DNA of 64,000 nucleotides from Eledone cirrhosa (Eukaryota). Below the pieces are notes generated by a model. That model searched no databases, was not told the DNA's origin, and saw only the letters and a list, made by a program, of their open reading frames with translations. Shown in pieces: positions 8,659-62,325 of the stretch; position 1 is the first letter of the stretch; every line of letters begins with the position of its first letter. The stretch lies in the NCBI GenBank assembly GCA_964016885.1, contig OZ024744.1, positions 50,034,001-50,098,000 of the forward strand, written 5' to 3'. Position numbers and translations under genes: made by a program.

Positions 8659-8684
8659 TGTCTAATGGAGAAAGAGGATATGAT

Positions 8685-9003: not shown

Positions 9004-9009
9004 CATTCA

Positions 9010-13690: not shown

Positions 13691-14085
13691 AGATGTGTTT
13701 ATATTTTCATTCTATAAGTTTTAAGGATTATAAACAATTTGTAATGTTATTTATACAACTGAGGATAAAACACACATGCTCTTTTGCAAAGTCTTCCCCA
13801 CATTGACTATCATTTTTACAAGGTTTTCAAAATAGTTGACAATCTTGTGGTAGGGGTATAAAAACACACGTGTCATTGTGTAATCACACACTTACATAGG
13901 TATACAAATATACTTACCGTGAGCATGTATATAAATTGTTTCGCAGTGTAGCCAAGGGGAGACGACTGCTCTATTCCTTCCAACGACAACTGTAAAGCTG
14001 ACTGTCTCTGCCCAATTGTGATATATATTTATATACTGTAAATAAAACCCTTTTTGTACAGCCGACCATGTTATTCTTCACTTTT

Positions 14086-18559: not shown

Positions 18560-19880
18560 AAGTATAAGGAAAAAAGATGAAATCGAAAATGCAACTGGAG
18601 TCTTTTTAAAAATGTATATATATTTTTTTGGTTCCTTTACCGGTTTCGCAGTACTTCTGCTTTTCAAAAGTAGAATTGAGATGGAGGGTTTGTGGTTTTC
18701 CTCACATCTGGTTGGTCTTTGAATGTTACTTGTTTTATATGGAAAAAAGTGGCTCGAAATGCCAGGTTTTTAGAGAAGTAATTTGGTTGGTTGGTTGGTG
18801 ATTAAGTATAATAAATTTTGCGCCAATTCGTGTTACAAAGTTCTTATTATATTTGTCTTCAAACAAAGGTGTGTGGGGGTGGGAGTGGCTCAGGTTGTTT
18901 TTTCATATATGAGTGACGTTTGGTTGGTTGATGCAGTCACGTGAATAAGCACATCAGCTTTCGTGCCAGTTTGTGTTTGAATTTCATTTTACTTAAAAAA
19001 AAGTGGCTCACGAAGGTTTTTTTTTTTTTTTTTTTATAAATGTAATTTGATTGGTTATAAATGAAATTATGACTGTCACGTGAACAAGTACATTACATTT
19101 CGCGCCCATATTTTGGAAATTTTTTATAGCCATTTAGAGAATGTTGTGCCAAACATAAGATAATGGTAAAAAAAAAAGGGATTGAGAGAGTTGTTCTGAG
19201 TATGACTGATGTGCTGAAATGTAATTTGATTGGTTATAAATGAAATTATGACTGTCACGTGAACAAGCACATTAAATTTCGCGCCCGTATTTGGGAATTT
19301 ATTTTGTTGCCTTTTAGAGAATTTTGTGCCAAACAAAAGATAATGGTCAAGAAAAACGGGATGGGGAGAATTGTTTTGGTTCAGTGAATATGGCTGGTGT
19401 GCTGGGGTGTCAGAATTCAGACTTTCTATTGAAATAAAGAAAGTAGGAATATGTATGTTTATTTGTGTGCTTGTGTGTAGGAAGATGATTCTATTGGTCG
19501 AAATGGGGGAGTGAGTTGTGTGTGTGTATGTGTGTGTGGGAGTATGGTTAGCATGTTAATATGGAGAGAATATATATATTTTGTGTGGGTGCGTATGTGT
19601 AGGAAAAAGATTCTATTAGTAGAAATGGGTGAGGGAGTTGTGTGTGTGTATGTATGGGTGTTATGTGTGTGTGTATAGGTGTTATGTGTGTGTGGTTATG
19701 TTAAGATGGATAGAATAAATATATTTTTTGTGTGCGTGTGTATGTAGGAAAATGATTCCGTTACTAGAAATGGGGAGGGAGTTATGTGTGTGTGGGGTGT
19801 GGTTAGCATGTTAAGGTGTTAGAGTATTAACGTATGTTAAGGTTTATTTAGTTCTGGTTTTTATTTTCTAAAGTAGGTGT

Positions 19881-19913
<33 letters not shown>

Positions 19914-21750
19914 CTGTTTGGATGATTAGCATGTTATGGTGTTGATATAATGTATATTAAACTATATTTAATGCTGGTCTATATTTTTGAATAAACATAT
20001 TTTCCTTATATATTCGTATTTGTTCTGTTGTATTGTCAGCGCAAAGATAAAATGGGAAGACTTGGAATTTGGGTGTCTTATTACTTGCGCATATGTCTAG
20101 ATATGCATTTAGAGGTATCTGTCTCGTGGTTGGATCTCGTAATTGTTGGTGATGAATTATCATTCTGTTTCTGAGTGTGAGTTTAGCATGTCCTATATAA
20201 ACTTGATTGCATCCTTTACATTTAATGGCAACATTATAGTTAAGGAAGCGGACAAGGGAAGTACTGTCGTCATTATGGATGTTGAACAATATAACATTTC
20301 TATGTTCTCCTCTTACAAAATACTAACTACTATGAAAGAGTAAAAAAACTACCAGCAATCAAAAACGATGACCAGATTCATTTGTCGATACCAGGAAGAC
20401 TTAACTAAAAAGGAACGCGATTATTTAACACGTTTTGAATACAATACCAGCAACCTTTACGGACTTCTGAAGATCCACAAGTGTAAAATAATTACCGATG
20501 CCTGTAAACAATCCACCTCAACCTGCGTGAGCACACAATACCCCACAAAACTTAAATTAAGACCAATTGTAGCGGGCCCACAATGTGAAACAGACTAAGC
20601 AACTTTATAGACATACTACTGAAACCAATTCTCAAACATATACCAAGCCTTGTAAGAGACGATCTGGACCTCTTAAACCACCTCCCAAAACATGTCAATA
20701 ACCACACTATTATTGTGTCATTCGGTGTAGTGAATCTCTACACAACAATCCCACACCAATACGGACTAGAAGCAATAGGATTTTGGCTAGAGAAATATCC
20801 CAATGAGATACCTGACAGAATAGAAAAAAGCTTAATCACCGAGGGATTAAAATTTATTTTACAGTACAACTTTTTTTATTTCGATGGCAGTACTTACAAG
20901 CAAATATCGGGGACTGCGATGGGTACAAAAACCGCTCCAACTTATGCCAACTTAGTCATGGCATACTTGGAAGTCCAGATATATGAAAAGTCCAAATAAA
21001 AATACGGATTGAACTTCCACAAATATTTATCAGAGAATTGGAAACACTACTTGGATGATTGTCTCGTTCTTTGGTCTCACACACTCGACCAAATAAATGA
21101 TTTAAAAAATTTAATTAACGGCATCAATAACCACATCCAATTCACAATGGAATACATCCAAGATCAACTTGAAATAAAAGACTTCAAGAATTAAAGGAAA
21201 TTCTACTCGAAAGACAGTACCCACCATTACTAATAAATAATGGAATAGAAAGGGCTAAAGCAATAGGCATTGATGAATTACGAAAACAGAAACAAATTCA
21301 AGGTACGTCCAATATTCTATCATATATCTCAACACACAGCACAAGAAATGCGGAAGCTTACAACACTATTCACAAGAACATCCCAAGACCCAAGAATGAA
21401 AAAAGCCATTGAAACACAAAATAATCAAAAGCAAAGGACAACTGAAATCACTAAAAACATTACTCACCAATGCCAAATTACCTACCACAAACCCACAACC
21501 AACTGTCAAAAAGTGTGGTCGCTCTAATTGTGGAAGCTGCACTCACCTCATTGAAGGCAACACGTATACATTTCAATCAAGACAACATTTTGCTGTAAAA
21601 ATCACTTCACTTGCTCATCAAAAAGTCTACTTTATGCCATTAAATGTAAAGGATGCAATGAAGATTATATAGGACAAAATAAACTCACACTCAGGATTCC
21701 AAGTCTTCCCATTTTATCTTTGCGCTGACAATACAACAGAACAAATAAAT
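18560..21750 (-). mobile_element. Penelope-like element: pseudo-LTR, 3'UTR and GIY-YIG end on minus (18560-20230), with RT/EN segment inverted on plus (20230-21750)
   Basis: KEADKGS, LRPIVAGP, GTAMGTKTAPTYANL, YLDD, CKGCNQVYIG. Confidence 0.9.
18632..18675 (-). ncRNA. minimal hammerhead ribozyme, U3-A8 core variant (family D)
   Basis: TTCTACTT-TTGAAAA-GCAG(AAGTA)CTGC-GAAA-CCGG-TA-AAGGAA, in the sense orientation of the PLE 3' end. Confidence 0.7.
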
Positions 21751-23789: not shown

Positions 23790-24340
23790 TATATTGTTAT
23801 ACTTTATAAATTTCCCGTTGGTTGGTTGGTTCCACAACCAGACGATTGTTCATATATTCGTCACACATTCTGTGACCTCTTCAGTGACTGGGGGTTCTTT
23901 TCTTTGTTTTTGTGCCTCTCCTTTGTTCTGTCCTACGCCATCTTGTTTTTGTGTGTATTGTGTGCTTAGTTTGCGCATGTGTTACATCCGGGTGTCTGTG
24001 TGTGTTTATATTTTATTTGTTTATTTATTTGTTTATTTACATGTTACTGGCTGGTTGTTTGTTCTATTTCACCGTTCCCCTATACTACGAGCTGTCTCAC
24101 CTATGTACACTATATTCTTATCTTTACATTGTCCTTCAGTACATTTTTTGGTATATACTACATAAAAAATGTATAACTGTAAAACTAGATATGTAGTATA
24201 TAGCAAAAAATGTACTGAAGGACAATGTAAAGATAAGGATATAGTGTACATAGGTGAGACAGCTCGTAGTATAGGGGAACGGTGAAATAGAACAAGTTTT
24301 ACAGTTATAAATTTTTCTAGTTTTACAGTTATACATTTTT
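23790..24340 (-). mobile_element. PLE 3' end relic (GIY-YIG fragment) with foldback 24057-24294 and a decayed HHR near 23850-23897
   Basis: IVYIGETARSIGER present on both strands; TCA-CTGAAGA-GGTCACA..TGTGAC-GAA-TATA-TGA. Confidence 0.7.
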
Positions 24341-24408: not shown

Positions 24409-24521
<113 letters not shown>

Positions 24522-24650
24522 AAAGTTATATTTAAAATTGTTGGGTTACAACTAGTAAATATTTATAACTGATATAAAAGCACTCGACAAATATTTGGAG
24601 TATATTTACAATATTAAATAAATGGAAAACTATATTTATAAAACCATATT

Positions 24651-24716
24651 TATTTCATTATATATATTTCGGGGATATCATATTAACAATATGCTATGCC
24701 TTCATCAGACAAAATA
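24651..24716 (-). ncRNA. hammerhead ribozyme family B, sense pseudo-LTR copy
   Basis: TATTTTGT-CTGATGA-AGG...CCCC-GAAA-TATATA-TA-ATGAAATA. Confidence 0.75.
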
Positions 24717-25074
24717 CAATATAAACAGTTTTATAGATAAATATATTCGACATACCGTAATAAACATCAACTTCATTTGAAGAGGTTTACGCTAGCAGTG
24801 AAAATACAGAGAGAAAGAAAGAGAGAAAGAAAAGAGGGAAAAAAGAAAGAAAGAAAGACAAAACGAAGAAAAGGAAGAAAAAGAAGAAAAAGAAAAAGAA
24901 GAAATGCATGGAACAAAATAGAGAGATGGAAAAATAGATAAAGCGAAGAGCTTCATGTAAAGAGACAGAAAGATATATATATATATAGAGAGAGGAAATA
25001 GAGATAGATACATATATATATATAGAAAATTAGGTAGTGGGAGGTCATTTTGAGTAAGTGTATCAATGATACAT

Positions 25075-25109
<35 letters not shown>

Positions 25110-25789
25110 GCTCAAGTATTAATGTAAGGGAGATATATAGAGAGATATAGAGAGATATAGAGAGATATATAGAGAGAAAAAAATTTAAAAATAGCCAGAC
25201 ATATTCGAGGCGTAGAAAACCCTATGTTTTAATGTATTAGTATTTATAAAACTTACACTATATTGTAAATATCAGTATTCCTGAATGAAACAAGTATTCA
25301 CAATGTGTGAAAATTCATTATCTTATGTTTAGTTTTAAAAAATTCATATGTTTATGTGACAGCTACAAACATCAATGTGAATCCAACTGATTCACTCCGC
25401 AAACTCTAAGTTACCGGAAAACATTCTCAATGTGGTATAAAAATTTGAGCGTATTATTATTCTTGCGATTACTCTACAAGATTATCTATCAAGCAGAAAT
25501 AGAGAGCAGATTTCAATATACTAATCGAAAATATATATTATATTATAAACAAAGATAACAATAATAATAATAATAAGTAAAAATATATAAAAATATAGAA
25601 TAGAAAACTAAAAAAATATTACGAAAGAATATTACATAATAAAAATATTGCATATTAAAAATACTACGTATTAAAAAATATTACGTATTAAAAATTTACA
25701 TATAAAAATATTAAAAATAATTAAAAATATTAAAAATAAAATAAAAAATAACAAATAAAAATATTATAGAATACTACAATACTAAAAGA

Positions 25790-26056
25790 ATAAAAATAAA
25801 AATAAAAATAAAAATAAAAATAAAAATAAAAATAAAAATAAAAATAAAAATAAAAATAAAAATAAAAATAAAAATAAAAATAAAAATAAAAATAAAAATA
25901 AAAATAAAAATAAAAATAAAAATAAAAATAAAAATAAAAATAAAAATAAAAATAAAAATAAAAATAAAAATAAAAATAAAAATAAAAATAAAAATAAAAA
26001 TAAAAATAAAAATAAAAATAAAAATAAAAATAAAAATAAAAATGAAAATAAAAATA
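25790..26056 (+). repeat. (AATAAA)n microsatellite inside the PLE 3'UTR
   Basis: Direct reading, over 40 units. Confidence 0.97.
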
Positions 26057-27612
26057 AACCACAAAGAACAACCCTTCAAAGTTAATTGACAATATATTGC
26101 CAAGTTCATTATAAGACAAAGCCAAAAATTATCTATCAAATCACATCTAGCAAAGAATATCGCAAAAAGATTATGATGTCCAATAATGTCTACATATGTT
26201 CCTATATTTAATATAGAAGTTTATCTAGTGTAAGGTTAATTCAAAAAATTTGGAGCATCGGCTTTTAGGGTAGCTTAATTTTTCATGAGGAATGTTTAGA
26301 TAAAAATAAAAATAAATAAAATAAAATAAACAATAAAAAGAGTAAAAAGAGGGAATCAAAGATTTAGGAATCAAAATATTTATCGGCTAGTTCTCAAATA
26401 AATATAAATCAAACCAAACATACTACATTTTAAATTTAAATTTATATTTAAACGTTGAGTTTAATCTATGTTTGCAACAACTGAATAAATTTGTCCGTAG
26501 GTTAAGGGAATTTTTAGATTTTAGTATAAAGAATATCTCCTCTGCGCAGAGGTCACATGTCTCAGAGGATGAATTAAAAGGAATCCCTCTTGAGACTATA
26601 TTCCAAGCCGTCGAATATCCAACGTTATCTAGCTTAAGTTGCCAGAGTACCCCTGATAGTGCCGTTGAAGATTTTTTATTTGGATCTGTGAAAGAATTCT
26701 TGTGGTTATTATAGCGAAGTTTAAATTCCGTCGATGTGGAACCGACGTAGTTAAAAGAATTAGAGTCAGTATTAACATTACAATTGTATACTATATTTTT
26801 AACTAAGCAGTTGTTATTTAACGGACATTTAGATCTATCTCTACAGTTACATTTGTTAACTTGTATATTATTTATGCTATTATCAGTAGGTTTTAAGTTC
26901 CTATTATTTATTCTATTAATATTTTGTGCTAAATTTTTGGTGGATGAGTAGGTTAATTTAATTGTATGCCTATTGAAGATTGAGTGATACCTATGTGTTC
27001 TAGGGAAGCGATTATCAAGAGCTTTGAAAAATCATTTAGCGATGTGGGTTTTAATGTTTAGTGAGAAAGGGGGGGGGGGGGCAAACCAAATTATGTTCCT
27101 AGTTCTATTTCTTTTTTGTCCTTTGGAATTATTGTAATGCTTTCTATTATAGTTGTTAATGTTGTTGCCGTAATTAAAAAAGTTGTTACTTTGTTTAGTT
27201 TGTCTATCATTATCTATGTACACAATCTTATCAGCATACCCTGCCCTAGCTAGTGCATCATTATAGTATTGGGCCTTTTCGTCAAAAATCTTTCTATTCG
27301 ACGAGATCCTAGAGATACGTTTTTGGACTGAGTTTACTATAGTGTTTTTGACAGATCTTTCTGTCTCTTTACATGAAGCTCTTCGCTTTATCTATTTTTC
27401 CATCTCTCTATTTTGTTCCATGCATTTCTTCTTTTTCTTTTTCTTCTTTTTCTTCCTTTTCTTCGTTTTGTCTTTCTTTCTTTCTTTTTTCCCTCTTTTC
27501 TTTCTCTCTTTCTTTCTCTCTGTATTTTCACTGCTAGCGTAAACCTCTTCAAATGAAGTTGATGTTTATTACGGTATGTCGAATATATTTATCTATAAAA
27601 CTGTTTATATTG

Positions 27613-27678
27613 TATTTTGTCTGATGAAGGCATAGCATATTGTTAATATGATATCCCTGAAATATATATAATGAAATA
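27613..27678 (+). ncRNA. hammerhead ribozyme family B, inverted pseudo-LTR copy
   Basis: TATTTTGT-CTGATGA-AGG...CCT-GAAA-TATATA-TA-ATGAAATA. Confidence 0.8.
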
Positions 27679-28061
27679 AATATGGTTTTATAAATATAGT
27701 TTTCCATTTATTTAATATTGTATATATATATATATATATATATGGGAGGAGGTTATAGTTCACTTGAAGCATTGTGTAATGAGGTATAAACGTTTGAATA
27801 TGTATAATAAAGCCAAAACAATGCAGGTATGGACATAGAAAAAAGAATGCAATTGCAAAAGATATTGTTGACAATTCGTTTTTTACCTTAGATTTATTTA
27901 AATGTCCTTAATTTTCGAGATCATATCTCTTCTTTCCGTATATCGTTTTCGGTGCGCTCGGCCGATTAACTCACTCGATATGCAAATTAGGTTGCTCAGC
28001 CGTTAATATGCATAAGGAAAGTATATACTTTCAGACGTTCAATCATCTGACAGGAAGGTAT

Positions 28062-28104
28062 ACGTTGCTGACGATAGCTAATAAGCTTGAAACTAGTACA
28101 GCGT
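28062..28104 (+). ncRNA. minimal hammerhead ribozyme (family A-related, in repeat 27940-28320)
   Basis: ACGTTG-CTGACGA-TAGCT(AATA)AGCTT-GAAA-CTAG-TA-CAGCGT. Confidence 0.85.
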
Positions 28105-28319
28105 TCCTTTGTCAAAGTTGAACAAATGAGCAACGATGGTTGCTAGACACTGTACGGCTTAATTCGGGATGTTTGTTTACAAACACACCGAGCATTATAA
28201 TAAATGTTCGGTGAATCCATACGTACATATATATATATGTGTGCATGTATGTATATATATATATGCATACTACTGTACGTCTGTATACATATATGTATGT
28301 ACGTATACATACTTATATT

Positions 28320-31300
28320 TAAGGTTTATTTAGTTCTGGTTTTTATTTTCTAAAGTAACAGGTGTTATGTGTGTGTGTGTATGTATGTGTCTGTCTGATG
28401 GTTAGCATGTTATGGTGTTGACATAATGTATATTAAACTATATTTAATGGTGGTGTATATTTTTGAATTAACATATTTTCCTTATTTATTCGTATTTGTT
28501 CTGTTGTATTGTCAGCCCAAACGTATCTTAAGGTTTATTTAGTTCTGGTTTTTATTTTCTAAATTAGGTGTTATGTGTGTCTGTATGTATGTGTCTGTTT
28601 GGATGATTAGCATGTTTTGGTGTTCCTTATTTATTCGTATTTATTCTGTTGTATTGTCAGCGCAAAGGTAAAATGGGAAGACTTGGAATTTGGGTGTCTT
28701 ATTACTTGCTCATATGTATGGATGTGCACTTAGTGGTATCTGTCTCGTGGTTGGATCTCGTAATTGTTGGCGATGAACAGTCATTCTGTCTCTGAGTGTG
28801 AGTTTATTTTGTCCTATATAATCTTCATTGCATCCTTTACATTTAATGGCATAAAGTAGATTTTTTGATGAGCAAGTGAAGTGATTTTTTACAGCAAAAT
28901 TTTGTCCTCATTGAAATGTATACGTGTTGCCTTCAATGAGGTGAGTGCAGTTTCCACAATTAGAGCGAACACATTTTTTGACAGTTGGTTGTGGGTTTGT
29001 GGTAGTTAATTTGGCATTGGTGAATAATGTTTTTAATGATTTCGGTTGTCTTTTGCTATTGGTTATTTTGTGTGTTTCAATGGCTTTTTTTTCATTCTTG
29101 GGTCTTGTTTCAATAGTGGGGTGTTCTTGTGAATAGTGTTGTAAGCTTCCGCATTTCTTGGGTTGTGTGTTGAGATATATGATAGAATATTGGACGTACC
29201 TTGAATTTGTTTCTGTTTTCGTAATTCATCAATGCCTATTGCTTTAGCCCTCTCTATTCCATTATTTATTAGTAATGGTGGGTACTGTCTTTCGAGTAGA
29301 ATTTCCTTTAATTCTTGAAGTCTTTTATTTCGCGTTTCATAATTGGAGACAATTGTACAAATTCTTCTTGCTAGATTAAAAGGAATGTTCGTCTTCGTGT
29401 GCTTTGGATGGTTGGAGGTGAATAGCAGGTATTGTTTGGAATCTGTTGGTTTGTAGTGTATGTCAGTTTCAATATTTGTGTCTTTTTTTAAAGATTAAGA
29501 TGTCCAGAAATGGGAGTTGATCTTGGTTGTATTCCATTGTGAATTGGATGTGGTTATTGATGCCGTTAATAAATTTTTTGAAATCATTCAGTTGGTCGAG
29601 TGTGTGTGACCAAAGAATGAGACAATCATCCAAGTAGCGTTTCCAATTCTCTGATAAAGATTTGTAGAAGTTCAATCCCTATTTTGATTTGGGCTGTTCA
29701 TATATCTGGACCTCTAAGTATGCCATACTAAGTTGACACAAGTTGGAGCGGCTTTTGTACCCATCGCAGTCCCCGATATTTGCTTGTAAGTACTGCCATC
29801 GAAATAAAAAAAGTTATTCTGTAAGATAAATTTTAATCCCTAGGTGATTAAGCTTTTTTCTATTCTGCCAGGTATCTCATTGGGATATTTCTCTAGCCAG
29901 AATCCTATTGCTTCTAGCCCGTATTGGTGTGGGATCGTTGTGTAGATTCACTACATCGAAAGACACAATAATAGTGTCGTTGTTGACATGTTTTGGGAGG
30001 TGGTTGAAGAGGTACAGATCGTCTCTAACAAGGCTTCGTATGTGTTTAATAATTGGTTTTAGTAGTATGTCTATAAAGTTGCTTAGTCTGTGTGTTTCAC
30101 ATTGTGGGCCCGCTACAATTGTCTTAATTTAAGGTCTGTGGGGGTATTGTGTGTTCACGCAGGCTGAGGTGGATTGTTTACAGGCATCGTTAATTATTTT
30201 ACACTTGTGGATCTTCGGAAGTCCCAAAATGTTGCTGGTTTTGTATTCAAAATGTGTTAAATAATCGCGTTCCTTTTTAGTTAAGTCTTCCTGGAATCGA
30301 CAAATCAATGTGTTTAATCTGGTCATCGTTTTTGTTTGCTGGTAGTGTTTTACTATTTCATAGTGATTAGTATTTTGTAAGAGAGAGAACATAGAATTTT
30401 TATATTTTTCAGCATTCATAATGACGACAATACTTTTCTTGTCCGCTTCCTTAATTATAATGTCCGTATTGTTTTTAGTTCATGGATAATCTCCAATTCC
30501 CTTCGACTCGTGTTAGGTTTGCGTTTAGGTTGGGGTAGTTCATGGTATGGGAAAGTTGCTATGTGGTCACAAAATTTGTCCAGAACTCTGTTTCTACCTT
30601 TTGTTGGGTTGTAACTGCTTTTATTCCGTACAATTGATTGGTCGTTATTCTCCTTGTCAAAGACTTCCTCTGTGAGACATAATTTTCTACAGAAGTGTGA
30701 GATATCGTCATTTATCTCATTGAGGTTAGAGTATTGCGGTGTTGGTGTGAATTTCAGTCCTTTGGAGAGAATTTTAACTTGTTGGGCTGAGAGCTTTGTA
30801 TTTGAAAGGTTGGTTATTTTCGGTTTTTCAAAATCGGTTTGTGCCACCGGGTGCCGTGGGTCCTGTAGCCTTGGTCTAAAAATGATTTTTCTGGAATGTT
30901 TTTTCATGGGTATTATTATATCTAATGGCATTTCCCCTGTTGTTGTGTGGTCTTGTAGAGAAGTTTCGGACGTATTGAGGTTCGGTTTGTTGATAGTCCG
31001 GGTTGTAGATTGTGTTCCTTTGTGTGGGTTGGGATCTACGATTTTGGAACAGGTTCTGTGTGGGTTGGGGTCTACGGTTTTGGAATAGGTTTTGTGTGGG
31101 TTGTGATCTGCGGATCGGGTCCTGTTTTGTGTTGGGGGATCTTCGGTTTTTGTTAGTAGGGTTATAGTTTTGTCTATGGGTTCTGAGATTATCGTCATAG
31201 TTTTGCTGGGGGTATGTTGGACGTTTTGTTACTTTTTTTGTTATTTGTTGTGCGTGTTGTGTGTGAGTTTTAGTTTGTTTTAAAAATGGGTTACCTGTAT

Positions 31301-31871
31301 GTTGTTCATTTTTGAAATCCATTTCATAGTTGTTGAACCAGGTGGCGTTTGTTTCCAATTGATTGGTCGTTATTCTCCTTGTCAAAAAATTCTCTTTCCA
31401 AATTTTCTTTCCAAAGTTTTAAGGTTTTTTCATAAAGTAGGCCTTCAGAGTGCCTTGAGATTTCTGTTTCCATCTGTTGGTCGAGTGACTTGAATTTTTC
31501 TTCGTTTAAGTAAAAAGAAATTCAAACAAACTGGCGCGAAAGCTGATGTGCTTATTCACGTGACTGCATCAACCAACAAAACTTCACTCATATATGAAAA
31601 AACAACTTGAGCCCCCCCCCCCCTTGTTTGAAGAACTTTGTAACGCGAACTGGCGCGAAATTTATTATACTTATTCACCAACCAACCACTTTTTTCCATA
31701 TAAAACAAGTAACATTCAAAGACCAACCAGATGTGAGAAAAACCACAGACCCTCCATCTCAACTCTACTTTTGAAAAGCAGAAGAACTGCGAAACTGGTA
31801 AAGGAACCAAATAAATATATATATTTTTTTAAAAATAAGACTCCAGTTGCATTTTCGATTTCATCTTTTTT

Positions 31872-31880
<9 letters not shown>
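28320..31880 (-). mobile_element. Penelope-like element, long decayed ORF (RT + GIY-YIG), with inverted pseudo-LTR at 31510-31880
   Basis: LSKGLKFTPTP, GLPKIHK, WKRYLDD, LPFLDI; same family as 18560-21750. Confidence 0.92.
31764..31806 (+). ncRNA. minimal hammerhead ribozyme, U3-A8 core variant (family D)
   Basis: TCTACTT-TTGAAAA-GCAG(AAGAA)CTGC-GAAA-CTGG-TA-AAGGAA. Confidence 0.68.
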
Positions 31881-31924
<44 letters not shown>

Positions 31925-32133
31925 AATATAAGTATCTATACGTACATACATATATATATACAGACGTACAGTAGTATGTATATACATACATACATGCACA
32001 CATATATATATGTACGTATGGGTTTACCGAACATTTATTTTAATGTTCGGTTTGTTTGTAAACAAACAGTCCGAATTAAGCCGTACAGTGTTCGGCAACC
32101 ATCGTTGCCTTTTTGTTCAACACTGACAAAGGA

Positions 32134-32176
32134 ACGATGAACTAGTTTCTAGCTTATTAGCTATCATCAGCACCGT
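32134..32176 (-). ncRNA. minimal hammerhead ribozyme (family A-related, in repeat 31925-32410)
   Basis: ACGGTG-CTGATGA-TAGCT(AATA)AGCTA-GAAA-CTAG-TT-CATCGT. Confidence 0.85.
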
Positions 32177-32662
32177 ATACCTTCCTGTCAATCGATAGAA
32201 CGTTTGAAAGTATATACTTTCCTTATGCATATTAACGTCTGAGCATTATAACAAATGTTCGGTAAACCCATACGTACATATATATATGTGTGCATGTATG
32301 TATGTATATATATACTACTGTACGTCTGTATACATATATGTATGTACGTATACATACTTATATTTATGTATCAGCCGTGCTAAGAGTGAGAAATGAAATT
32401 TCATTATTTTCCATTTATATATATATATATATATATATAACAATTAAGTTAAAAATGTACATCCACATATGTATACTGAAATACTAGTATGCATATGAAT
32501 ACACACGCGTGTACATATGTAGATGTACCGAGTTTTTCACTGGACACTTTACTGTGAGTGTCCAGCTATTCTGTATGTAAACACACAGACAAACCGGTTT
32601 TTAGAGTCATACTGGTTTTCGAGGAAACACCTTTCCTCTATTCTCCAGAAAGCCAGACAAGG

Positions 32663-32707
32663 AATATTGGACTAGTTTCGATGTTGTTACATCTCATCAG
32701 CAATATT
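32663..32707 (-). ncRNA. canonical minimal hammerhead ribozyme (family E)
   Basis: AATATTG-CTGATGA-GATGT(AACA)ACATC-GAAA-CTAG-TC-CAATATT; perfect stems I and II, GUC site. Confidence 0.93.
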
Positions 32708-33295
32708 TACCTATCTTCCGGCCTTTCTAGAGAATCGTAAAAGCACATATCGTCATATGCTTTTTCTATGAAAATTAGTAGTGGGCAGACTAATTTGCAT
32801 AGAGCGTGAGTACGTACCGGTTCAGCGGAGACGATAAAAACAAATAACGAAACGAAATTAAATTTCGTTTCGTTTGTAACTCACTTTTGTATGTCTGACG
32901 CTTAAACAATTAAGTTAAAAATGTACATCCACATATGTATACTGAAATACTAGTAAAGTGTCCAGTGAAAAAAAGTAAAGTGTCCAGTGAAAAACTCGGT
33001 ACATCTACATATGTACACATATGTACACGTGTGTGTATTCATATGCATACTAGTATTTCAGTATACATATGTGGATGTACATTTTTAACTTAATTGTTTA
33101 AGCGTCAGTCATACAAAAGTGAGTTACAAACGAAACGAAATTTAATTTCGTTTCGTTATTTGTTTTTATCGTCTCCGCTGAACCGGTACGTACTCACGCT
33201 CTATGCAAATTAGTCTGCCCACTACTAATTTTCATAGAAAAAGCATATGACGATATGTGCTTTTACGATTCTCTAGAAAGGCCGGAAGATATGTA

Positions 33296-33340
33296 AATAT
33301 TGCTGATGAGATGTAACAACATCGAAACTAGTCCAATATT
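33296..33340 (+). ncRNA. canonical minimal hammerhead ribozyme (family E)
   Basis: Identical motif on the plus strand. Confidence 0.93.
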
Positions 33341-33642
33341 CCTTGTCTGGCTTTCTGGAGAATAGAGGAAAGGTGTTTCCTCGAAAACCAGTATGACTCT
33401 AAAAACCGGTTTGTCTGTGTGTTTACATACAGAATAGCTGGACACTCACAGTAAAGTGTCCAGTGAAAAACTCGGTACATCTACATATGTACACGTGTGT
33501 GTATTCATATGCATACTAGTATTTCAGTATACATATGTGGATGTACATTTTTAACTTAATTGTTTAAGCGTCAGTCATACAAAAGTGAGTTACAAACGAA
33601 ACGAAATTTAATTTCGTTTCGTTATTTGTTTTTATATATATA

Positions 33643-33731
<89 letters not shown>

Positions 33732-33817
33732 GTACGTTATTCCGGGTTGAATCGGAGGTAACCACAGTAAGTAAGGTACTCAATACATTGCAGAGTATAA
33801 AAGTTTTAATATAGATG

Positions 33818-33868
33818 AGATTCTACAGGACTAGAACTGTTTCATTCTTTAGAAATCATCAGGAATCT
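33818..33868 (-). ncRNA. hammerhead ribozyme (family F) in the perfect palindrome 33803-33926
   Basis: AGATTC-CTGATGA-TTTCT(AA)AGAAT-GAAA-CAG(TTCTAGTC)CTG-TA-GAATCT. Confidence 0.8.
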
Positions 33869-33923
33869 GATGATTTCTAAAGAATGAAACAGTTCTAGTC
33901 CTGTAGAATCTCATCTATATTAA

Positions 33924-33974
<51 letters not shown>

Positions 33975-34012
33975 CAGTTGAAAATTGCAAACTTTACTGT
34001 CACCACATAATA

Positions 34013-34051
34013 TGAACCTGAAGATTGCGAAAGCATGAAAGTACTTGTTCA
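34013..34051 (+). ncRNA. 39-nt minimal hammerhead ribozyme (family G)
   Basis: TGAAC-CTGAAGA-TTGC(GAAA)GCAT-GAAA-GTAC-TT-GTTCA; GNRA-capped stem II, palindromic stem III. Confidence 0.85.
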
Positions 34052-34209
34052 ATTAACACTTAACATTTAATATTCTACCATACTATTTCATTCTAATACC
34101 ATTATAAATTTTAAAGGATTGTAAATAAAACGAGTAAATCAGACAAAGTTGGAATTCCTTTTATATATATATGTATATATATATATGTGTATATATATAT
34201 ATGTATATA

Positions 34210-34328
<119 letters not shown>

Positions 34329-34487
34329 GTGTGTGTATATATATATATATATATAAATGTAAGTATGTATGTTTTCGGTATGCCTGACCGATTTAACTCA
34401 CTCAATATGCAAATTAGGCTGCTCAGCCGTTAATTTTCATAAGGAAAGTATATACTTTCGAACGTTCAGCTATCTGGCAGATGGGTA

Positions 34488-34532
34488 AACAGTGCTGATG
34501 ATAGCTAACAAGCTTGAAACTAGTACATCGTT
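34488..34532 (+). ncRNA. minimal hammerhead ribozyme, array unit 1
   Basis: AACAGTG-CTGATGA-TAGCT(AACA)AGCTT-GAAA-CTAG-TA-CATCGTT. Confidence 0.85.
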
Positions 34533-34977
34533 CCTGTGTCAGTGTTGAACAAAAAGGTGACGTGGTTGCCTTAACACCGTATGGCATAAATTCAGGCTGT
34601 TCGGTTTGTTGACAAACAAACGAACAAAGCTGCGTTATAATAAACGTCGGCTAAACTGATGCGTGCATATATGTATGTGTACCTGTATGCATATATGTAT
34701 ATATATGTATATATATATATATATATGTATATATATGCATGCTACTGTACGTCTGTATACATATATGTATGTACGTATACATACATACTTACATTTAAGT
34801 AAGTGCCACACTAAGAGTGAGAAATGAAATTTCGTTTTCATTTTTTTTTTTCAACTTATCGTTTTCGGTATGCCTGACCGATTTAACTCACTCAATATGC
34901 AAATTAGGCTGCTCAGCCGTTAATTTTCATAAGGAAAGTATATACTTTCGAACGTTCAGCTATCTGGCAGATGGGTA

Positions 34978-35022
34978 AACAGTGCTGATGATAGCTAACA
35001 AGCTTGAAACTAGTACATCGTT
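34978..35022 (+). ncRNA. minimal hammerhead ribozyme, array unit 2
   Basis: Same motif as unit 1. Confidence 0.85.
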
Positions 35023-35197
35023 CCTGTGTCAGTGTTGAACAAAAAGGTGACGTGGTTGCCTTAACACCGTATGGCATAAATTCAGGCTGTTCGGTTTGTT
35101 GACAAACAAACGAACAAAGCTGCGTTATAATAAACGTCGGCTAAACTGATGCGTGCATATATGTATGTGTACCTGTATGCATATATGTATATATATG

Positions 35198-35228
<31 letters not shown>

Positions 35229-35469
35229 GCATGCTACTGTACGTCTGTATACATATATGTATGTACGTATACATACATACTTACATTTAAGTAAGTGCCA
35301 CACTAAGAGTGAGAAATGAAATTTCGTTTTCATTTTTTTTTTTCAACTTATCGTTTTCGGTATGCCTGACCGATTTAACTCACTCAATATGCAAATTAGG
35401 CTGCTCAGCCGTTAATTTTCATAAGGAAAGTATATACTTTCGAACGTTCAACTATCTGGCAGATGGGTA

Positions 35470-35514
35470 AACGGTGCTGATGATAGCTAACAAGCTTGAA
35501 ACTAGTACATCGTT
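35470..35514 (+). ncRNA. minimal hammerhead ribozyme, array unit 3
   Basis: AACGGTG/CATCGTT stem I fully paired (one GU). Confidence 0.9.
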
Positions 35515-36547
35515 CCTGTGTCAGTGTTGAACAAAAAGGTGACGTGGTTGCCTTAACACCGTATGGCATAAATTCAGGCTGTTCGGTTTGTTGACAAACA
35601 AACGAACAAAGCTGCGTTATAATAAACGTCGGCTAAACTGATGCGTGCATATATGTATGTGTACCTGTATGCATATATGTATATATATGTATATATATAT
35701 ATATATGTATATATATGCATGCTACTGTACGTCTGTATACATATATGTATGTACGTATACATACATACTTACATTTAAGTAAGTGCCATACTAAGAGTGA
35801 GAAATGAAATTTCGTTTTCATTTTTTTTTCAACTTATATATATATATATATGTATATAGAATTAGTCTCTTAATAGACTAACTCTATTTAGTCAAATACG
35901 GCGTAAACATAGGTTACTACCTAATTTTCAAATTCGCTAGCCCTTTCTAAACAAAGCTTGCTTTGTGTCTCCCTATTTATATACATATTAAGTATTCCCT
36001 TAAAAAATTGTTTTCATTTTTTTTTGTCTACGTTCGTTCTTTAGTCCTTTGTTCGTTTTCTCAAGTTTATCTACTAATGTGACGAATGTGTTATCTCTTC
36101 TAAAAAATTTATTGTTATGGCTTACATTTTCTACCACGATATCATACTTTCTTTTTTTTTTTTTTTCTTACTTTCTTTTTTCCTTTGTTTTACTTATATT
36201 TCGCGGACTATGTGAGGCAGCAGACATTTACCCTAACGTTACACAAAATTGTATATGTTTTGTAGCTTAACAACTATAAATTACTATATATCTTTTGACT
36301 CTTACTCCTTTGGACAGCGTTTGCCTCATGTCAGACGCTGTGACTCCGGACGGACCAGCAGTACTGTTGGTAGGGGTCGAAACTGCGCAAGTCCATCTCA
36401 ACGGCCGATAACCATGGAGTTCTCTGTCCTTCGTTTGTATATTTATTTTTCTTTAAATAATTTTGTTAAGGTTTCCCCTTAAAAAATTGTTTTTCGTTTT
36501 GCTTTGTTTCCATTCGTACTCTTGTCCTTTGTTAATTTTCTTAAGTT

Positions 36548-37183: not shown

Positions 37184-37328
37184 TGCGTAGGAAAACCTTC
37201 ATGGTTGGGTCTACGGTATAATATGTATGTTGCAGGGCCTACACTGTATGCGCACAAAGCGCATACAGTGTAGGCTCTGCAACATACATATTATACCATA
37301 GACCAGACCATGAAGGTTTTCCTACGCA
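37184..37328. repeat. imperfect hairpin palindrome, ~70-bp arms
   Basis: TGCGTAGGAAAACCTTCATGG...CCATGAAGGTTTTCCTACGCA. Confidence 0.85.
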
Positions 37329-37961: not shown

Positions 37962-38905
37962 GCAGTATCGGTAGGGGGTCGGACGCCATGCTTTGCAGCA
38001 TAGAGTTATGCCCCTTTGAGTTCAAATCCCGCCAAGGTTAACTTTGCCTTTCATCCTTACGGGCTCGATAAAATAAAGTACCAGTAATACACTGGTTTGG
38101 ACTTGTGCCAAATATAGAAATAATTATTTACTATTGTGATTCTTTCGTTAGTACAGGGTGGTGTTTCTGACATTGTTTTCAGCAAGAATTAACGTTTTAA
38201 GTGCATACAACATATGTGTGATGGGTGTTACAACAGCTTGCTATTAATATCTGCTACGTTAGGGCGGTGGGTTGGCAGTATCAATAGAGCGCCGAACACC
38301 ATGCTCTGCAGCATAGAGTTACGGCCCTTTATGATCTGAGTTCAAATCCCGCCGAGGTTAACTTTACCTTTCATCCTTACGGGGTCGATAAAATAAAGTA
38401 CCAGTCACGCATTGGAATCGATTTAATCGACTTTCCCCACCCCAAAATTGTTGGGTTGTGCCTATAAATGAAACCACTGGATTGGCAGTATCGGTGGAGG
38501 GTCGGACGCTATGCTTTGACGCATAGAGTTGCGGCCCTTGCCATTCTGAGTTCAAACCCCGCCGAGGTTAACTTTGCCTTTCATCCTTACGGGGTCGATA
38601 AAATAAAGTACCAGTAATGTACTGGGTAATTGCTGGCCTTATGCCAAAAGTAGAAACAATTATTATCTGGTACGTTAGGGCTGTGGATTGGCAGTATCGG
38701 TAGAGCATCGGACACCATGCTTTGCAGCATAGAGTTACTGCCCTTTACGATCTAAGTTCAAATCCTGCCAAGATTAGCTTTGCCTTTCATCCTTACAGGG
38801 TCGATAAAATAAAGTACCAGTAATACACTGGCGTCGATTTAATCGACTTTCTCCTCCCCCAAATTACTGGCCCTGTGCCTATAGTAGAAAGTATTATCTG
38901 GTACG
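37962..38905 (+). mobile_element. cluster of four tRNA-derived SINEs (starts near 37962, 38261, 38478, 38677)
   Basis: A box TGGCAGTATCGG, B box GAGTTCAAATCC, conserved central domain. Confidence 0.92.
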
Positions 38906-40665: not shown

Positions 40666-40780
<115 letters not shown>

Positions 40781-40888
40781 GTTAGAATATGTGTAATAAG
40801 GCCAAGTAATATGTGTAATTTGGCCTTATTACACATATTCTAACGTTTATACCTCATTACACAATGCTTCAAGTGAACTATAACCTCC

Positions 40889-40949
<61 letters not shown>

Positions 40950-40957
<8 letters not shown>

Positions 40958-41287
40958 TAAAAAAATAATGAATAAAACAATGAAACAGTTCCTTATATTA
41001 AACAAAAAAAGTTCATTATTTAACGATCGTTTCTAGGATATATATGTGTTAGAATTGGCATGCATATTCAACAGATCTATGTACAAAATTATATATAATA
41101 TAATTATATATTATATATAATATAATTATATATTATATATAATATAATTTTGTACATAGATCTGTTGAATATGCATGCCAATTCTAACACATATATATCC
41201 TAGAAACGATCGTTAAATAATGAACTTTTTTTGTTTAATATAAGGAACTGTTTCATTGTTTTATTCATTATTTTTTTAATATTTTAT
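40950..41287. repeat. near-perfect foldback palindrome, ~165-bp arms
   Basis: Direct reading; arms contain GAAA-CGATCG-TT, resembling the 3' half of an HHR. Confidence 0.92.
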
Positions 41288-43250: not shown

Positions 43251-43257
<7 letters not shown>

Positions 43258-43626
43258 AGTAAGTCAAACATGTAACATTTTTTAGCTTCGTTTATTATAA
43301 ATTCTCTGGTATATATATTTCGGTGACGGCTATTATTGGCTGTGACCTCTTCAAGCAGTACAAATTAATGTGGAAAAGACAAGTAAACATGTTGTTGAAA
43401 TGTGTTCAACTCTGTAAATACATCGATATGTCCAGCTCCTGGGTGTGTTGTTAGGACTAACTATTGACAGAGTTGAACACATTTCAACATGTTTACCTGT
43501 CTTTTCCACATTAATTCGTGCTGCCTCAAGATGTCACAGCCAATAATAGCCGTCACCTAAATATATATAGCAGAGAATTTATAATAAACGAAGCCAAATT
43601 TTACATGTTTGACTTACTTATTTTAC
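43251..43626. repeat. older inverted repeat, each arm with a decayed hammerhead (43306-43358 minus, 43521-43573 plus)
   Basis: Consensus of the arms: CTGC-CTGAAGA-GGT...ACC-GAAA-TATATA-TA-GCAG. Confidence 0.8.
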
Positions 43627-43790: not shown

Positions 43791-43794
<4 letters not shown>

Positions 43795-44269
43795 TAAGTG
43801 TGTTTTGAAACAGTGAGCGAGTTTGAAATTAGAAAATATATAGCTTTCACCGTATTTTAACTAAAGGAATTTTAGCTTGATAACGGGGTTTAGAACCCTC
43901 AGATAAATGGAAAAAGATGAGTATTGACGTACAATACTCATCTTTTTCCATTTATCTGAGGGTTCTAAACCCCGTTATCAAGCTAAAATTCCTTTAGTTA
44001 AAATACGGTGAAAGCTATATATTTTCTAATTTCAAACTTGCTCACTGTTTCAAAACATACTTACTTGCCATTTAAACTCGCTACTAAGAATGTAGTTTCT
44101 AATTTGAATGGAAAGAGATGGGTGATGTGTTGGTGTAATGGTAGCACAGTGGTCGCGATAACCACAGATGTGGCTCCCATGTACGTCAATACTCATCTTT
44201 TTCCATTTATCTGAGGGTTCTAAACCCCGTTATCAAGCTAAAATTCCTTTAGTTAAAATACGGTGAAAG

Positions 44270-44305
<36 letters not shown>

Positions 44306-45959: not shown

Positions 45960-47960
45960 CTGATTGCTTCCTCTTTGCAGATGATTGCCGTCTCCCTGTG
46001 CACCCCATCAACCATCACCAACCCCAGACGTCGGTCCATGGCCCCTTAGGTGGCTTTTAAGTCCAGCATTAGATATGCACGGTTTGCAGCAAATGTGACA
46101 GACAAAAGGTGTGCCCTCTATTTGATTTATTGGATCAGTTTGTGGGATGTCATCCTTATGTACCCTCATATGCCTTTTAAGACCAGAGATTGATTTGCAG
46201 GTCTTTTTGCACACCTCACAGGTTGTCTCACCTAGCGTTGGATGGATACAGTTGGCGTTTTAAGTGATTTTAAATGAGTGATCTACCCAGATTTAGTGAG
46301 CAGTAAATGACCACACATCTCACAACTCCAGCCCCCATGTTCTTATTGAGGTTCATACTGTGGCTCTTTCGAAGCTGACGTTTAAGTTTTCATGATCAAG
46401 ACGTCTCTCTTCAAACATTCTGCAGCCTTCCATCACATGTCCTTTCCAATCAACCCTCTTTAAAGCAAACACTTCCCAGTTCTGAACTTCAAACCGTTGA
46501 TCTTTAAGGTTGTTTTTTGTGCAATCCTTATATCTTTTTCATAGTTTGTGCTGAAGGCGTTTCCCAGTGTGCAATTGACTGTAAAATATTTGTTTTGGGA
46601 GTCTTTTCTCATTCATGCGAACAACATGGCCTTCCTAGCGCATTTGAGAGGATATGGTAGTAGATTCAATGCTCGTGCAACTAGCATCTATAAGGATTTG
46701 TGTGTCCGGTATATTTGTTACCATTTGATATTTAGGATTCGTCTTAAACACTTTTGATTAAAGTGTTCAAGCAGTTAAGGTGTCTACGATATACTGTCCA
46801 CGTTTCGGAAGAGTACAACAGACCACTCAGAATGTAGACTTTGTACACACTAATCTTGGTCTTGATATTGATGCCATGATTTGGCCACACTCTTGTTTCA
46901 AGTTTTACGAAGGCTACAGAGGCCTGAATGCGGAGATGTATTTCTGCATCCAGTAAGCCACCCCTTTATAATGCACTACCCAGGTAAACAAAAGTGTCAA
47001 CTACACCCAACCTAGTTCCATGCACCATTATATAGGTTAACTTTGCCTTTCATCCTTACGGGATCGATAAAATAAAGTACCAGTAATACACTGAGATAAT
47101 TTCTGGCCCTGTGCCATTATATTTGGCTCAATATATACTTCCCCAGGTGATAGGGTAAACATTACCTTGGTCTTTTTTAGATTAATTTTCATACCAAAGG
47201 CATTACAAGAAGCTGCAAAACAATCCATGATGTGTTGCATGCCATCTTGAGAGTGAGCTAAAAAGACAACATCGTCTGCATATAGGAGTACTTTAATTAA
47301 CATTTGGAACACCTTGGATTTGAAATTGAACCTTCTTTTGTCAAAGATTCTTCCTGTAGTTCTAACTTGCAATAGAACACCCTTTGCATAGTCCTGGCAT
47401 GCCTGAGTCAGCATCACAACAGAAAATATTGAAAACAGTGTGGGAGCTGGGATATCTCCCTGCTTCATGCCATCATCAACTGGGATTTCATTGAACAATT
47501 CTCCATTCAAGACAACCCCACCTTTCATATTTCTGTGCAGTTGGACAAACATATCAATAAACTTGAGTAGGCCCCAATTTTCCCTAATATTTTCCACAGT
47601 GTACCTCTGTTCACCGTATCAGAGGCCTTTGTCAGCTCAACAAAAACCTGATACAGAGGAGCCCGCTGCTCAATACATTTCTCCTGAATCTGCCTTGCAG
47701 AGACAATCGTATCAATCGTCCTTCTGCCAGATCTAAAACCACTTTGTGATTGAGAGATAACTGTTCAACAATAATCTAGCAAGAACTTTGTCCACAGACT
47801 CCAACAGAGTGATGCCATGGTAGTAATGATCACAGATTCCTTAATCCTCTTTACTTTTAAACAAGGTCACTAGAATACCATCTATCCAATCTTGTGGTAT
47901 AGGAGCTCCAGCCCAGCCCTCTGTGATGAGATGGAGTACTGTTTGTGTTATGCTATTACC
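45960..47960 (-). mobile_element. RTE/BovB-like LINE with C-terminal C2H2 zinc fingers; SINE fragment inserted at 47033-47115
   Basis: GMKQGDIPAPTLF, LLYADD, CKKTCKSISGLKRHMRVH, CHICCKPCISNAGLKSHLRGH. Confidence 0.88.
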
Positions 47961-51446: not shown

Positions 51447-51594
51447 TATGTTTATTAATGCATACAGTGATTTGTGACAATGTTTACCTGATAAATGTTG
51501 TGGCACGTGTTTGAAGAAATACAAAACCCAATAACAATAAGCCAATCAATCACCTGTGAGAATATTTACCACATATTAATGTAAATATAATTAA

Positions 51595-52021
51595 TATAAA
51601 GTACCAGTAATGTACTGGGTAATTGCTGGCTTTGTGCCAAAAGTAGAAACAATTATTATAAACGTCACCAGGGCGGTAGATTGGCAGTATAGGTAGAACG
51701 TCCGACACCATGCTTTGCAGCATAGAGTTACGGTCTGAGTTCAAATCCCGCAGAGGTTAACTTTGCTTTTCATCCTTACAGGGTCGATAAAATAAAGTAC
51801 CAGTAACGTACTGGGTCAACTTAATCGACTCCCCCTTCTCCTTAGGTTGCTGGCCTTGTGCTTTGCAGCATAGAGTTACAGCCCTTTACGATCTGAGTTC
51901 AAATCTGTCGAGGTTAACTTTGCCTTTCTTCCTTACGGGGTCGATAAAATAAAGTACCAGTAATGCAATGGGATAATTGCTGGCCTTGTGCCAAAAGTAG
52001 AAACAATTATTATAAACGTCG
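51595..52021 (+). mobile_element. tandem tRNA-SINE cluster (tail, full copy, partial copy)
   Basis: A and B boxes plus central domain. Confidence 0.88.
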
Positions 52022-52059: not shown

Positions 52060-53743
52060 TAAAGCCATACGGACACCCAAAAACAATGATCAGGTGAGAA
52101 AAATGATGGCACATGCAAAAGGGGCTAGTATTAAAACTACCCTAAAGGGCCATATGTTTAAATTTAACTTAAAGATCTACACCCAAAATGAGGGAGCAGC
52201 CATTGGTGTTAGCATAGCTGGTGATGTTGCCAATCTATTTATGGTATGGTGGGAGAGAGGATTCAGAGAACTACTTGATGAGAGCTCCATAGACCTCGTC
52301 ATGTACTCTCCTTACGTAGACGATATTAATATAGTACTAAGGACACTCCCATAAGGGAGTACTAATAAACATGATTTAGAAAATAGCACAATGGAAAACA
52401 TCCAGCAGATAGCTAACTCCATACACCAGAGTATAACTGTAACTGTTGACTACCCTTCCAAACACCTTTACAATAGATTACCAGTATTAGACACGGAACT
52501 CTGGATTAACACTATAGACGAGATGGCCCAAATTCTCCACTCACACTACGCTAAACCCATGGCCTCTAAATACCTGATACTCAAAAATTCAACAATGTCC
52601 AGTAGTGCTAAGTTTAATATTCTGATTGCAGACATGGTAAGAGTGATGAAGAATGTGTCCTGCATGTGCGACCCAACTGGAATGGAAAGACACATCCAAC
52701 ACTTCCTCAACCACATGCCATTCTCTGGCTACAACCAAAGAGACAGAATTAGAGTATACAAAGGAGCCACGGAGAAGTATAAGACCCTCATAGAAATTGA
52801 CATGAAAGAGATATGTTCATTTTACAGGAGTAAATCATGGAATAGCTTAGATAGGACTAAACATAAGATAGGGAAAGCCACTTCATAGTACGACAACCAG
52901 AGATACCAGAGTGTCATGTTCGTGGATGCTACCCCTGGAGGGAAATTAGCTAACCAATGTAGAAAGGCCCTAAGAAAGACACATTTAGAGATTGAAGTGG
53001 TAGAAAAGCCAGGAACTACCATAAAATCCCTGATCAGCAAGACATACCCCTTTAAGAAAACCCATTGTACAAATAAAAAAATGTGTTATATGTAAAATGA
53101 ACCCCCAGATAAATTGTAAAACTAGAAATGTAGTCATAGCATAAGATGTATAAGGGAACTTGCAGAAACATGACAACGACAAACAAAGGTGAGACAGCTC
53201 GAAGCATAGGAGAAAGAATAGACCAACACTGTGGGAGGGGGGTGGGCTAAAAGGACAAAAAATGGTTCAGTACTATACGAACACGCCAGACAAAGACATG
53301 ACGGTAATATAGACAACATAGAAATTAAAATAATATCTACGCATAGAAATGACTCAAGAGGTAGGCAAATCAAAGAAGCAACTGAGATAGAACTAAGAAG
53401 ACCGAAATCGAACAGAAAGACCGAATGGAATAACAACAACAACCATACCCAAATAAACAATACTGGCTTAAGGGAAATATAAATAAATAAATAAATAAAT
53501 AAATATATATACACAAGTACAATAACAACAAATACATATAAACACACACTAGTGAACAAAAATAGAATACGAAAACACATACACTCAAACGCGAACACAC
53601 GCAAACGCATGTGCAGAGACAGAGACAAGAAGAAATAAATTAATTAAAATAAAAATGACGTAGACATTACAGTACAATACAATAGGAGAAAACATAATAG
53701 TACCACTGATGATGTTGCAGATGTGCAACGAAAGAACTTTGAT

Positions 53744-54390: not shown

Positions 54391-54842
<452 letters not shown>

Positions 54843-61919: not shown

Positions 61920-62325
<406 letters not shown>

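Follow-up and report, generated by a model that had tools for sequence, protein, structure and literature searches.

Retrozymes and their origin from Penelope-like elements (PLEs) have already been described in print, and the array reported here is a further member of that class. Animal retrozymes were tied to PLEs by distribution and by pLTR homology (Li 2026, 10.64898/2026.07.22.740005), and in the text of a 2020 review metazoan retrozymes were stated to show no motif that reveals a partner (PMC7761336). PLE insertions are recognised by tandem copies that are partial, by an inverted arm placed head-to-head and by a tail on one side only (Craig 2021; Arkhipova 2013, PMC3846280); the tails reported are of 30-40 bp. 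The tail was traced to two internal start sites of reverse transcription, both DNA strands being nicked at AT-rich sites and then extended (Frangieh 2024). The Hydra clade of PLEs is reported to target (TA)n and to carry hammerheads in every case (Craig 2021). Recently active Penelope-like families were reported in O. vulgaris, and the passages that describe them do not mention ribozymes (PMC13282606). No published cephalopod report of such retrozymes was found, and supplementary lists may hold octopus examples; supplementary material aside, no published description of PLE tails on retrozymes was found either. The present locus adds evidence at the level of single junctions, namely ORF-less units that carry the PLE-specific tail and inverted arm, with an ORF-bearing control nearby, and it names two start sites of reverse transcription.

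The window comprised 64,000 nucleotides of Eledone cirrhosa contig OZ024744.1 (assembly GCA_964016885.1, positions 50,034,001 to 50,098,000 of the forward strand); all positions are those of the window. A tandem array was located by TRF at 34371-35837 (period 492, 3.0 copies, 98% matches), where the initial annotation had placed it, with unit starts at 34371, 34861 and 35353. The array and its flanks comprised the following parts.

34162-34353, strand not applicable: left (TA)n tract, the insertion target (TRF period 2, 97 copies)
34354-34372, - strand: short head-to-head inverted arm (unit positions ~407-425), tailless, ending at 3' site i and overlapping U1 by 2 nt
34371-34860, + strand: unit 1 (U1), 490 nt, beginning exactly at the unit boundary
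34861-35352, + strand: unit 2 (U2), 492 nt, equal to U1 save for one extra TA
35353-35837, + strand: unit 3 (U3), 485 nt, with the ancestral base at all three diagnostic sites
35639-35777, + strand: long AT-rich imperfect hairpin of U3 (one per unit), ending at 3' site i (35777)
35778-35837, + strand: 60-nt tail between 3' site i and site ii, containing a short hairpin
35838-35851, strand not applicable: right (AT)n remnant of the target

The array had been described as lying inside (TA)n. It was flanked by such sequence on both sides, with a left tract of ~190 nt but a right one of only ~14 nt. Both array ends fall within (TA)n, so that a target-site duplication, which exceeds 4 bp in those non-LTR retrozymes that have one, is unreadable there. 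Insertions into TA tracts have piled up one after another across 31875-35851. The units contained no ORF, as had been claimed: the longest stop-free frame in six frames was 86 aa and of low complexity. No similarity to PLE proteins was found in the unit by blastx against 32 of them (best E 0.69). GC content was 35%, below 50%. The predicted monomer circle folded at -160.5 kcal/mol with 67% of bases paired (z -10.2, 40 shuffles), a z score that came mostly from the AT hairpin; the first 288 nt alone gave z -3.65. No tRNA was found in the window (ARAGORN), and Pol III box patterns gave no match. Tandem ORF-less units, a type I hammerhead in each, GC below 50% and a self-paired predicted circle support the retrozyme-like identity first proposed.

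Copies related to the array had been noted at three places and were present at all of them. A decayed piece was found in addition at 14596-14716. Together with the array these constitute family A, sampled here as five loci, all within the window. The dispersed copies and a sister family were as follows.

2-832, - strand: copy O1, ~94% identical to U3; its long arm crosses one unit junction and exits the window
27941-28323, + strand: copy O2, ~85%, running from unit start to site i, with a G.U to U.G swap in stem I
31917-32415, - strand: copy O3, ~88%; its long arm ends at site i and its inverted arm (32243-32415) bears the tail
32440-33634, + strand: sister family B, unit of 464 nt; both of its head-to-head arms have a hammerhead and a unit junction, and only one has a tail (70 nt)

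The inverted arm of O1 occupies 576-832 and ends at site ii, and its hammerhead core is broken (GAAA to AAAA). O1 adjoins, together with a family C fragment, an interrupted (TA)n array of 2.6 kb (1189-3827). O2 adjoins, in head-to-head orientation, an unrelated sequence of 200 nt (27745-27940), the TA-abutting end of which recurs at 40819-40888 (region 40778-40890); possibly this was one insertion primed on two different RNAs. O2 and O3 were considered as inverted repeats of the Neptune element that lies between them. This was ruled out, as they are 84% alike, compared with an arm divergence of 0.3-5% within one insertion; O3 is also set apart from the Neptune element by its own TA tract. Family B was 68% identical to family A over aligned columns. 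Its hammerheads scored best (Hammerhead_HH9, E 5e-7 and 1e-5, below the Rfam gathering threshold), its arms differed at 2/397 sites and its successive laps at 0/183. Of the two, family B rather than the trimer is the better candidate for an active element.

One hammerhead motif was located in each unit of the array.

34474-34542, + strand: type I hammerhead of U1; stem I is extended and mismatched (A.C) at pair 1.4; core 34495, cleavage predicted after 34525
34964-35032, + strand: type I hammerhead of U2, core 34985, predicted cut after 35015, A.C mismatch as in U1
35456-35524, + strand: type I hammerhead of U3, intact, core 35477, predicted cut after 35507, palindromic helix III ACUAGU, U.U at stem II base

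All three (3/3) comprised CUGAUGA, a stem II of 4 bp that has U.U at the base, GAAA, a helix III of two pairs with a 2-nt loop, and GUA, and the predicted cut after GTA was at unit position 155 throughout. The CTGATGA cores gave the spacings of 490 and 492 nt noted earlier. A strict type I scan returned 11 matches in the window, whereas none of 20 shuffles gave any. The statement that each unit carries one hammerhead stands for the motif, but the strict scan was passed by U3 only (1/3). Similarly, the stem I quoted as ACGGTG/CATCGT is that of U3, whereas U1 and U2 read ACAGTG. It is the change at unit position 121 that places the A.C mismatch in stem I; it takes the extended stem from -16.1 to -10.9 kcal/mol, and the four proximal stem I pairs had probability 0.0 in U1/U2 versus 0.18-0.8 in U3. 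Since two of the three stems I are weakened by ~5 kcal/mol, efficient release of monomers from the array locus is, on these predicted energies, doubtful.

No Rfam match reached the gathering threshold; below it, Hammerhead_HH9 scored 18.5 bits on U3 (E 0.029) and 12.8 bits on U1 (E 1.9). Matches to miRNA families in E-value mode were rejected as noise from the TA-rich hairpin, being far under gathering scores. Minimum-energy folds of the 51-nt hammerheads gave alternative pairing, not the active core (z -0.2 to -2.0). Over eight aligned hammerheads (seven distinct), helix positions were paired in 93.9% of 147 cells, and pairing dropped to 33-44% when the partners were slid. Two-sided change was seen in 7 of 21 pairs, mostly from two family B rows and with the structure drawn from the same sequences. 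The covariation ACGTTG/CAGCGT claimed for stem I is real and was seen in the copy at 28068. Across the families, covariation implies that the hammerhead was selected during propagation of the lineage. Stem I runs on past a bulge, and the GUA before the bulge and three loop-2 A's were invariant in the eight rows; the extended stem and these invariant bases suggest a canonical rather than a minimal hammerhead, with a possible tertiary contact between loops 1 and 2.

Helix III is palindromic, and the hammerhead families of the window have four different palindromes between them; ATATATAT, AGTACT and ATGCGCAT are among those that vary by family. The palindromic helix with its 2-nt loop, and the several palindromes across families, support the proposal that adjacent hammerheads supply a dimeric stem III. 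Weak palindromic helix III has been described together with dimeric cleavage (PMC4209133). Within a dimer, each unit would be cut by the catalytic half of the other, so that U3 could cut U2, while U1 and U2 are predicted to be poor enzymes. More type I hammerhead motifs, of other families, were located at 1096, 24708, 27621, 34018, 43052 and 33862. A covariance model built from the eight window hammerheads gave strong matches to those eight only (the other 10 of 18 had E of at least 0.08), and it returned no additional family A or B hammerhead adjoining a PLE ORF in the window.

The 3' ends of family A were at two fixed sites. Site i is unit position 425, where the short arm of the array ends, and site ii is position 485, 60 nt on, where the long arm ends. 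All six clearly visible 3' ends lay at site i (34354, 28321, 31923) or at site ii (35837, 832, ~32415). Of the remaining ends, that of the decayed copy lay near site i and one was beyond the window. The permuted end points that had been anticipated among copies were not seen: 3' ends are fixed, and variation is confined to the inner 5' junctions. Among five long arms, those of the trimer and O2 begin at the unit boundary, numbers too small to interpret. An extension on one arm only was present in all six two-ended insertions (the trimer, O3, family B and three family C copies), and tail lengths were 60 nt in family A, 70 nt in family B and 93 nt in family C, all above the published 30-40 bp. 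Two-armed insertions with a one-sided extension place the PLE signature on retrozyme ends. The tail, the inverted arm and the (TA)n target thus support copying by a PLE reverse transcriptase, as the initial annotation had proposed. That annotation had also considered that copies might occur only as the termini of full-length PLEs. Within the window this was not so: a seamless tail-to-start junction with no ORF between recurred five times in three insertions (two in the trimer, one in O1 and one in each arm of family B).

Two kinds of ORF-bearing PLE lie close to these insertions.

24516-27720, - strand: family C, a Hydra-type PLE truncated at the 5' end, with an ORF and a hammerhead; its long arm bears a 93-nt tail and its inverted arm none
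28319-31874, - strand: decayed Neptune-type PLE with RT and GIY-YIG, inverted arm at 31505-31874

Family C, being ORF-bearing, served as an internal control for the end signature. Its assignment as Hydra-type is based on two things, a custom profile and a linker motif known from the literature: all five relatives of its ORF matched the custom profile of 20 Neptune-like proteins (E 3e-17 to 5e-8), and the ORF carries CxCx5C, the linker of the Hydra clade that targets (TA)n. Neither this ORF nor its five relatives were recognised by Pfam. Named relatives of the Neptune-type ORF were from Octopus bimaculoides (76%), Mytilus (56-72%), Argonauta (66%) and O. sinensis (65%), which points to a mollusc as the probable host, and the TA-rich landscape is octopus-like. 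A second decayed copy of the Neptune-type element lies at 18567-21747 and is ~91% alike in the ORF. In the 3' region of the Neptune-type element a short GC-containing motif occurs three times at intervals, and scans returned no hammerhead there. Further decayed PLE-like ORF regions lie at 52064-53640 (+) and 58393-60051 (+), the latter Hydra-like.

A PLE ORF in sense adjoined none of the five family A loci, and no clear sequence sharing between the unit and an autonomous PLE was found within the window. The Neptune end resembled the retrozyme tail end weakly (p 0.0024, 5000 shuffles; best non-self match of 113 ends, a multiplicity at which this value fails). The Hydra- and Neptune-type ORFs in the window are decayed and no intact partner PLE was found there; the Hydra-type (family C) and Neptune-type PLEs are the two candidates for a partner.

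Other repeats were recorded in the window. At least 11 long fold-back (palindromic) inserts of unrelated sequence, most of them abutting (TA)n, were located at 8680-9006, 14155-14275, 24059-24295, 33803-33926, 37184-37328, 40952-41284, 43253-43623, 43793-44270, 54396-54732, 54879-55393 and 62060-62171; these are probably truncated two-armed insertions of PLE type. A partly tandem repeat of ~206 bp was located at 38243-38851 and in ~15 dispersed pieces (13534-13691, 47034-47116, 51592-52015, 56046-58229). It resembles a tRNA-derived SINE; the ARAGORN scan found no tRNA. An inverted duplication of ~800 bp (95%) at 11275-12974 contains a short exon-like frame that may be RMND5-like, for which no homologues were found by search.

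Taken together, the unit is most probably a non-autonomous PLE derivative (a non-LTR retrozyme) that was mobilised in trans by a PLE protein with two fixed start sites. Of a PLE terminal repeat, the 490-nt unit would retain the cis signals, together with a hammerhead but no ORF. Tandem copies would be transcribed, and their hammerheads, pairing through the palindromic helix III, would cut the multimers. A PLE protein supplied in trans would nick both strands of a (TA)n tract, and reverse transcription would begin internally at the two fixed sites, which are separated by 60 nt; the products would be two cDNA arms, head-to-head, with a tail on one only. The long arm would be copied through intact hammerhead sites from a circle or an uncut multimer. 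The last step to the three-unit state would most simply be a tandem duplication or conversion after insertion, copying an already mutated unit. The structure, the fixed ends, the covariation and the variant pattern were observed directly, and from them we infer cleavage, RNA circles, mobilisation in trans and the kind of partner.

The nature of the template was constrained by the arms. Six arms extend far enough to meet the cut site; all of them continue past it, and no 5' end was seen at 155/156; the 5' end nearest to the cut site is at position 173, in the decayed copy. Since no arm stops at the cleavage site and the 3' ends are unpermuted, the template was a circle or an uncut multimer, and linear self-cleaved monomers were not the template. 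As template of the long arm, a circle and an uncut multimer are about equally probable.

Dispensing with the circle altogether, the trimer may be a one-pass copy of an uncut read-through multimer, transcribed from a donor array whose units already differed. Weakened hammerheads would let the multimer survive, and the 5' end at position 1 would be the transcript start. We give this account somewhat less than an even chance. It accommodates the shared variants (see below), the integer length and the read-through, and it fits the near-unformed proximal stem I pairs of U1/U2 and the start of O2, likewise at a unit boundary. PLE reverse transcription in vitro used mainly unprocessed RNA and cleavage was dispensable (Frangieh 2024), and eight of nine Xenopus dimers were uncleaved in vitro (Li 2026, 10.64898/2026.07.22.740005). 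However, the covariation across families implies a hammerhead under selection during propagation, retrozymes of coral, mussel and axolotl accumulate as circles (PMC7229834), and the donor array is not visible in the window.

Rather unlikely, and put forward tentatively, is that families A and B are minimal PLE parasites that replicate via circular RNA. A PLE dimer would start on the circle at the two fixed sites, run through the hammerhead and tend to stop back at the protein-bound start, giving whole-number arrays. The hammerhead would be inactive in the monomer circle because helix III needs a partner. If true, such a reading would provide direct genomic evidence that target-primed reverse transcription can be templated by a circle, which has so far been no more than a proposal, and would show where the cis signal lies by which retrozymes recruit the PLE machinery.

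The units are not the exact trimer first described. U1 and U2 differ by no substitution in 490 nt and by one TA indel, but U3 departs from both by three substitutions in 485 nt plus indels. The substitutions are at unit positions 99, 121 and 437. Among informative outgroup segments, the U3 base was found at site 99 in 2/3 (the third having another base), at site 121 in 3/3 and at site 437 in 3/3. Since the dispersed copies carry the U3 base, the three changes common to U1 and U2 are derived. A-to-I editing as their source was ruled out, the changes being A>G, G>A and T>C. Copy O1 was considered as a further case of shared derived variants and was likewise ruled out, its differences being private to each segment.

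Shared derived changes mean that three laps on one RNA circle are insufficient alone, and the trimer cannot be taken, as had been suggested, for the clean rolling-circle product of a single circle. Near-identical tandem units are in themselves no proof of rolling-circle copying. The strict form of that model, in which the trimer records three consecutive RT laps round one 490-nt circle and has not changed since, has on its side a whole number of units (3.0), copying through all three hammerhead sites, seamless junctions, identity of 98-100%, a stable circle fold (z -10.2) and the absence of differences between successive laps in family B (0/183). Independent laps should nevertheless give private errors, the fold score is largely due to the AT hairpin, and by a back-of-envelope estimate the chance that independent laps repeat or revert three given sites is ~1e-7. 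The model would survive only with later conversion, a template switch between two circles or mosaic assembly, and in its strict form it is improbable. Judged from the aligned units, an extra step is needed: a later duplication or conversion at the DNA level, a mixed template, or a mosaic assembly. Unequal exchange within the first 98 nt of a dimer would yield the U1/U2/U3 pattern.

That the units are instead pLTRs of an autonomous PLE, left by 5' truncation, amplified as a minisatellite and never mobilised without an ORF, has little probability. The end architecture does equal that of ORF-bearing family C, a model of local amplification is given in Li 2026 (10.64898/2026.07.22.740005), and the variant pattern points to a DNA-level step. 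Against this, the ORF-less junction occurs in insertions of two families that are 68% alike, including both arms of family B, and the adjoining sense ORF expected of a PLE is missing at each family A locus. An assembly artefact, with the third unit arising from an expanded dimer or from merged alleles, would suit the lack of substitutions between U1 and U2, the position in long TA tracts and the known trouble that PLE structures cause in assembly (Craig 2021), but the TA indel between U1 and U2 and the canonical junctions make it improbable as well, and the identity of the element is unaffected either way.

The favoured reading, a non-autonomous PLE derivative, was compared with four known systems. 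Plant LTR retrozymes are alike in being non-coding and hammerhead-bearing and in having a proposed circular intermediate. The array differs from them in its type I rather than type III hammerhead, and neither an LTR-internal-LTR layout nor a purine tract of at least 10 on the sense strand was present. The hammerhead repeats of newt and salamander satellite 2 (summarised in PMC7229834) are alike, by description, in a weak palindromic helix III suited to dimeric cleavage and in tandem units of a few hundred bp; in contrast to these, the array belongs to dispersed low-copy arrays with fresh insertion signatures.

Metazoan non-LTR retrozymes (PMC7229834; Li 2026, 10.64898/2026.07.22.740005) are alike in that their repeats are tandem and lack an ORF, each unit has one type I hammerhead, GC is below 50%, the predicted circle is self-paired and PLEs co-occur; axolotl HHR_Amex2 shares the U.U at the base of helix II. 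The 490-nt unit is longer than the 150-450 bp given in PMC7229834 and within the 51-972 bp of Li 2026. Retrozymes classed as active by Li 2026 have at least two consecutive complete hammerheads; the trimer has one complete hammerhead in three by the strict descriptor used here, which is other than that of Li 2026. The array differs in a helix III loop of only 2 nt, and its cleavage and circles are predicted. Its (TA)n site, PLE tail and inverted arm are not among the features described for retrozymes in the text of PMC7229834 or of Li 2026.

PLEs of the Hydra and Neptune clades are alike in partial tandems, an inverted arm, a one-sided tail, a repeat-borne hammerhead and (TA)n targeting. The array differs from them in that its whole repeat unit is 490 nt and its tail is 60 nt, not 30-40; in contrast to the minimal form of PLEs, its hammerhead has an extended stem I and helix III. 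By these features the array would function like a PLE end, yet, having neither an RT nor a GIY-YIG ORF, it is not an autonomous PLE.
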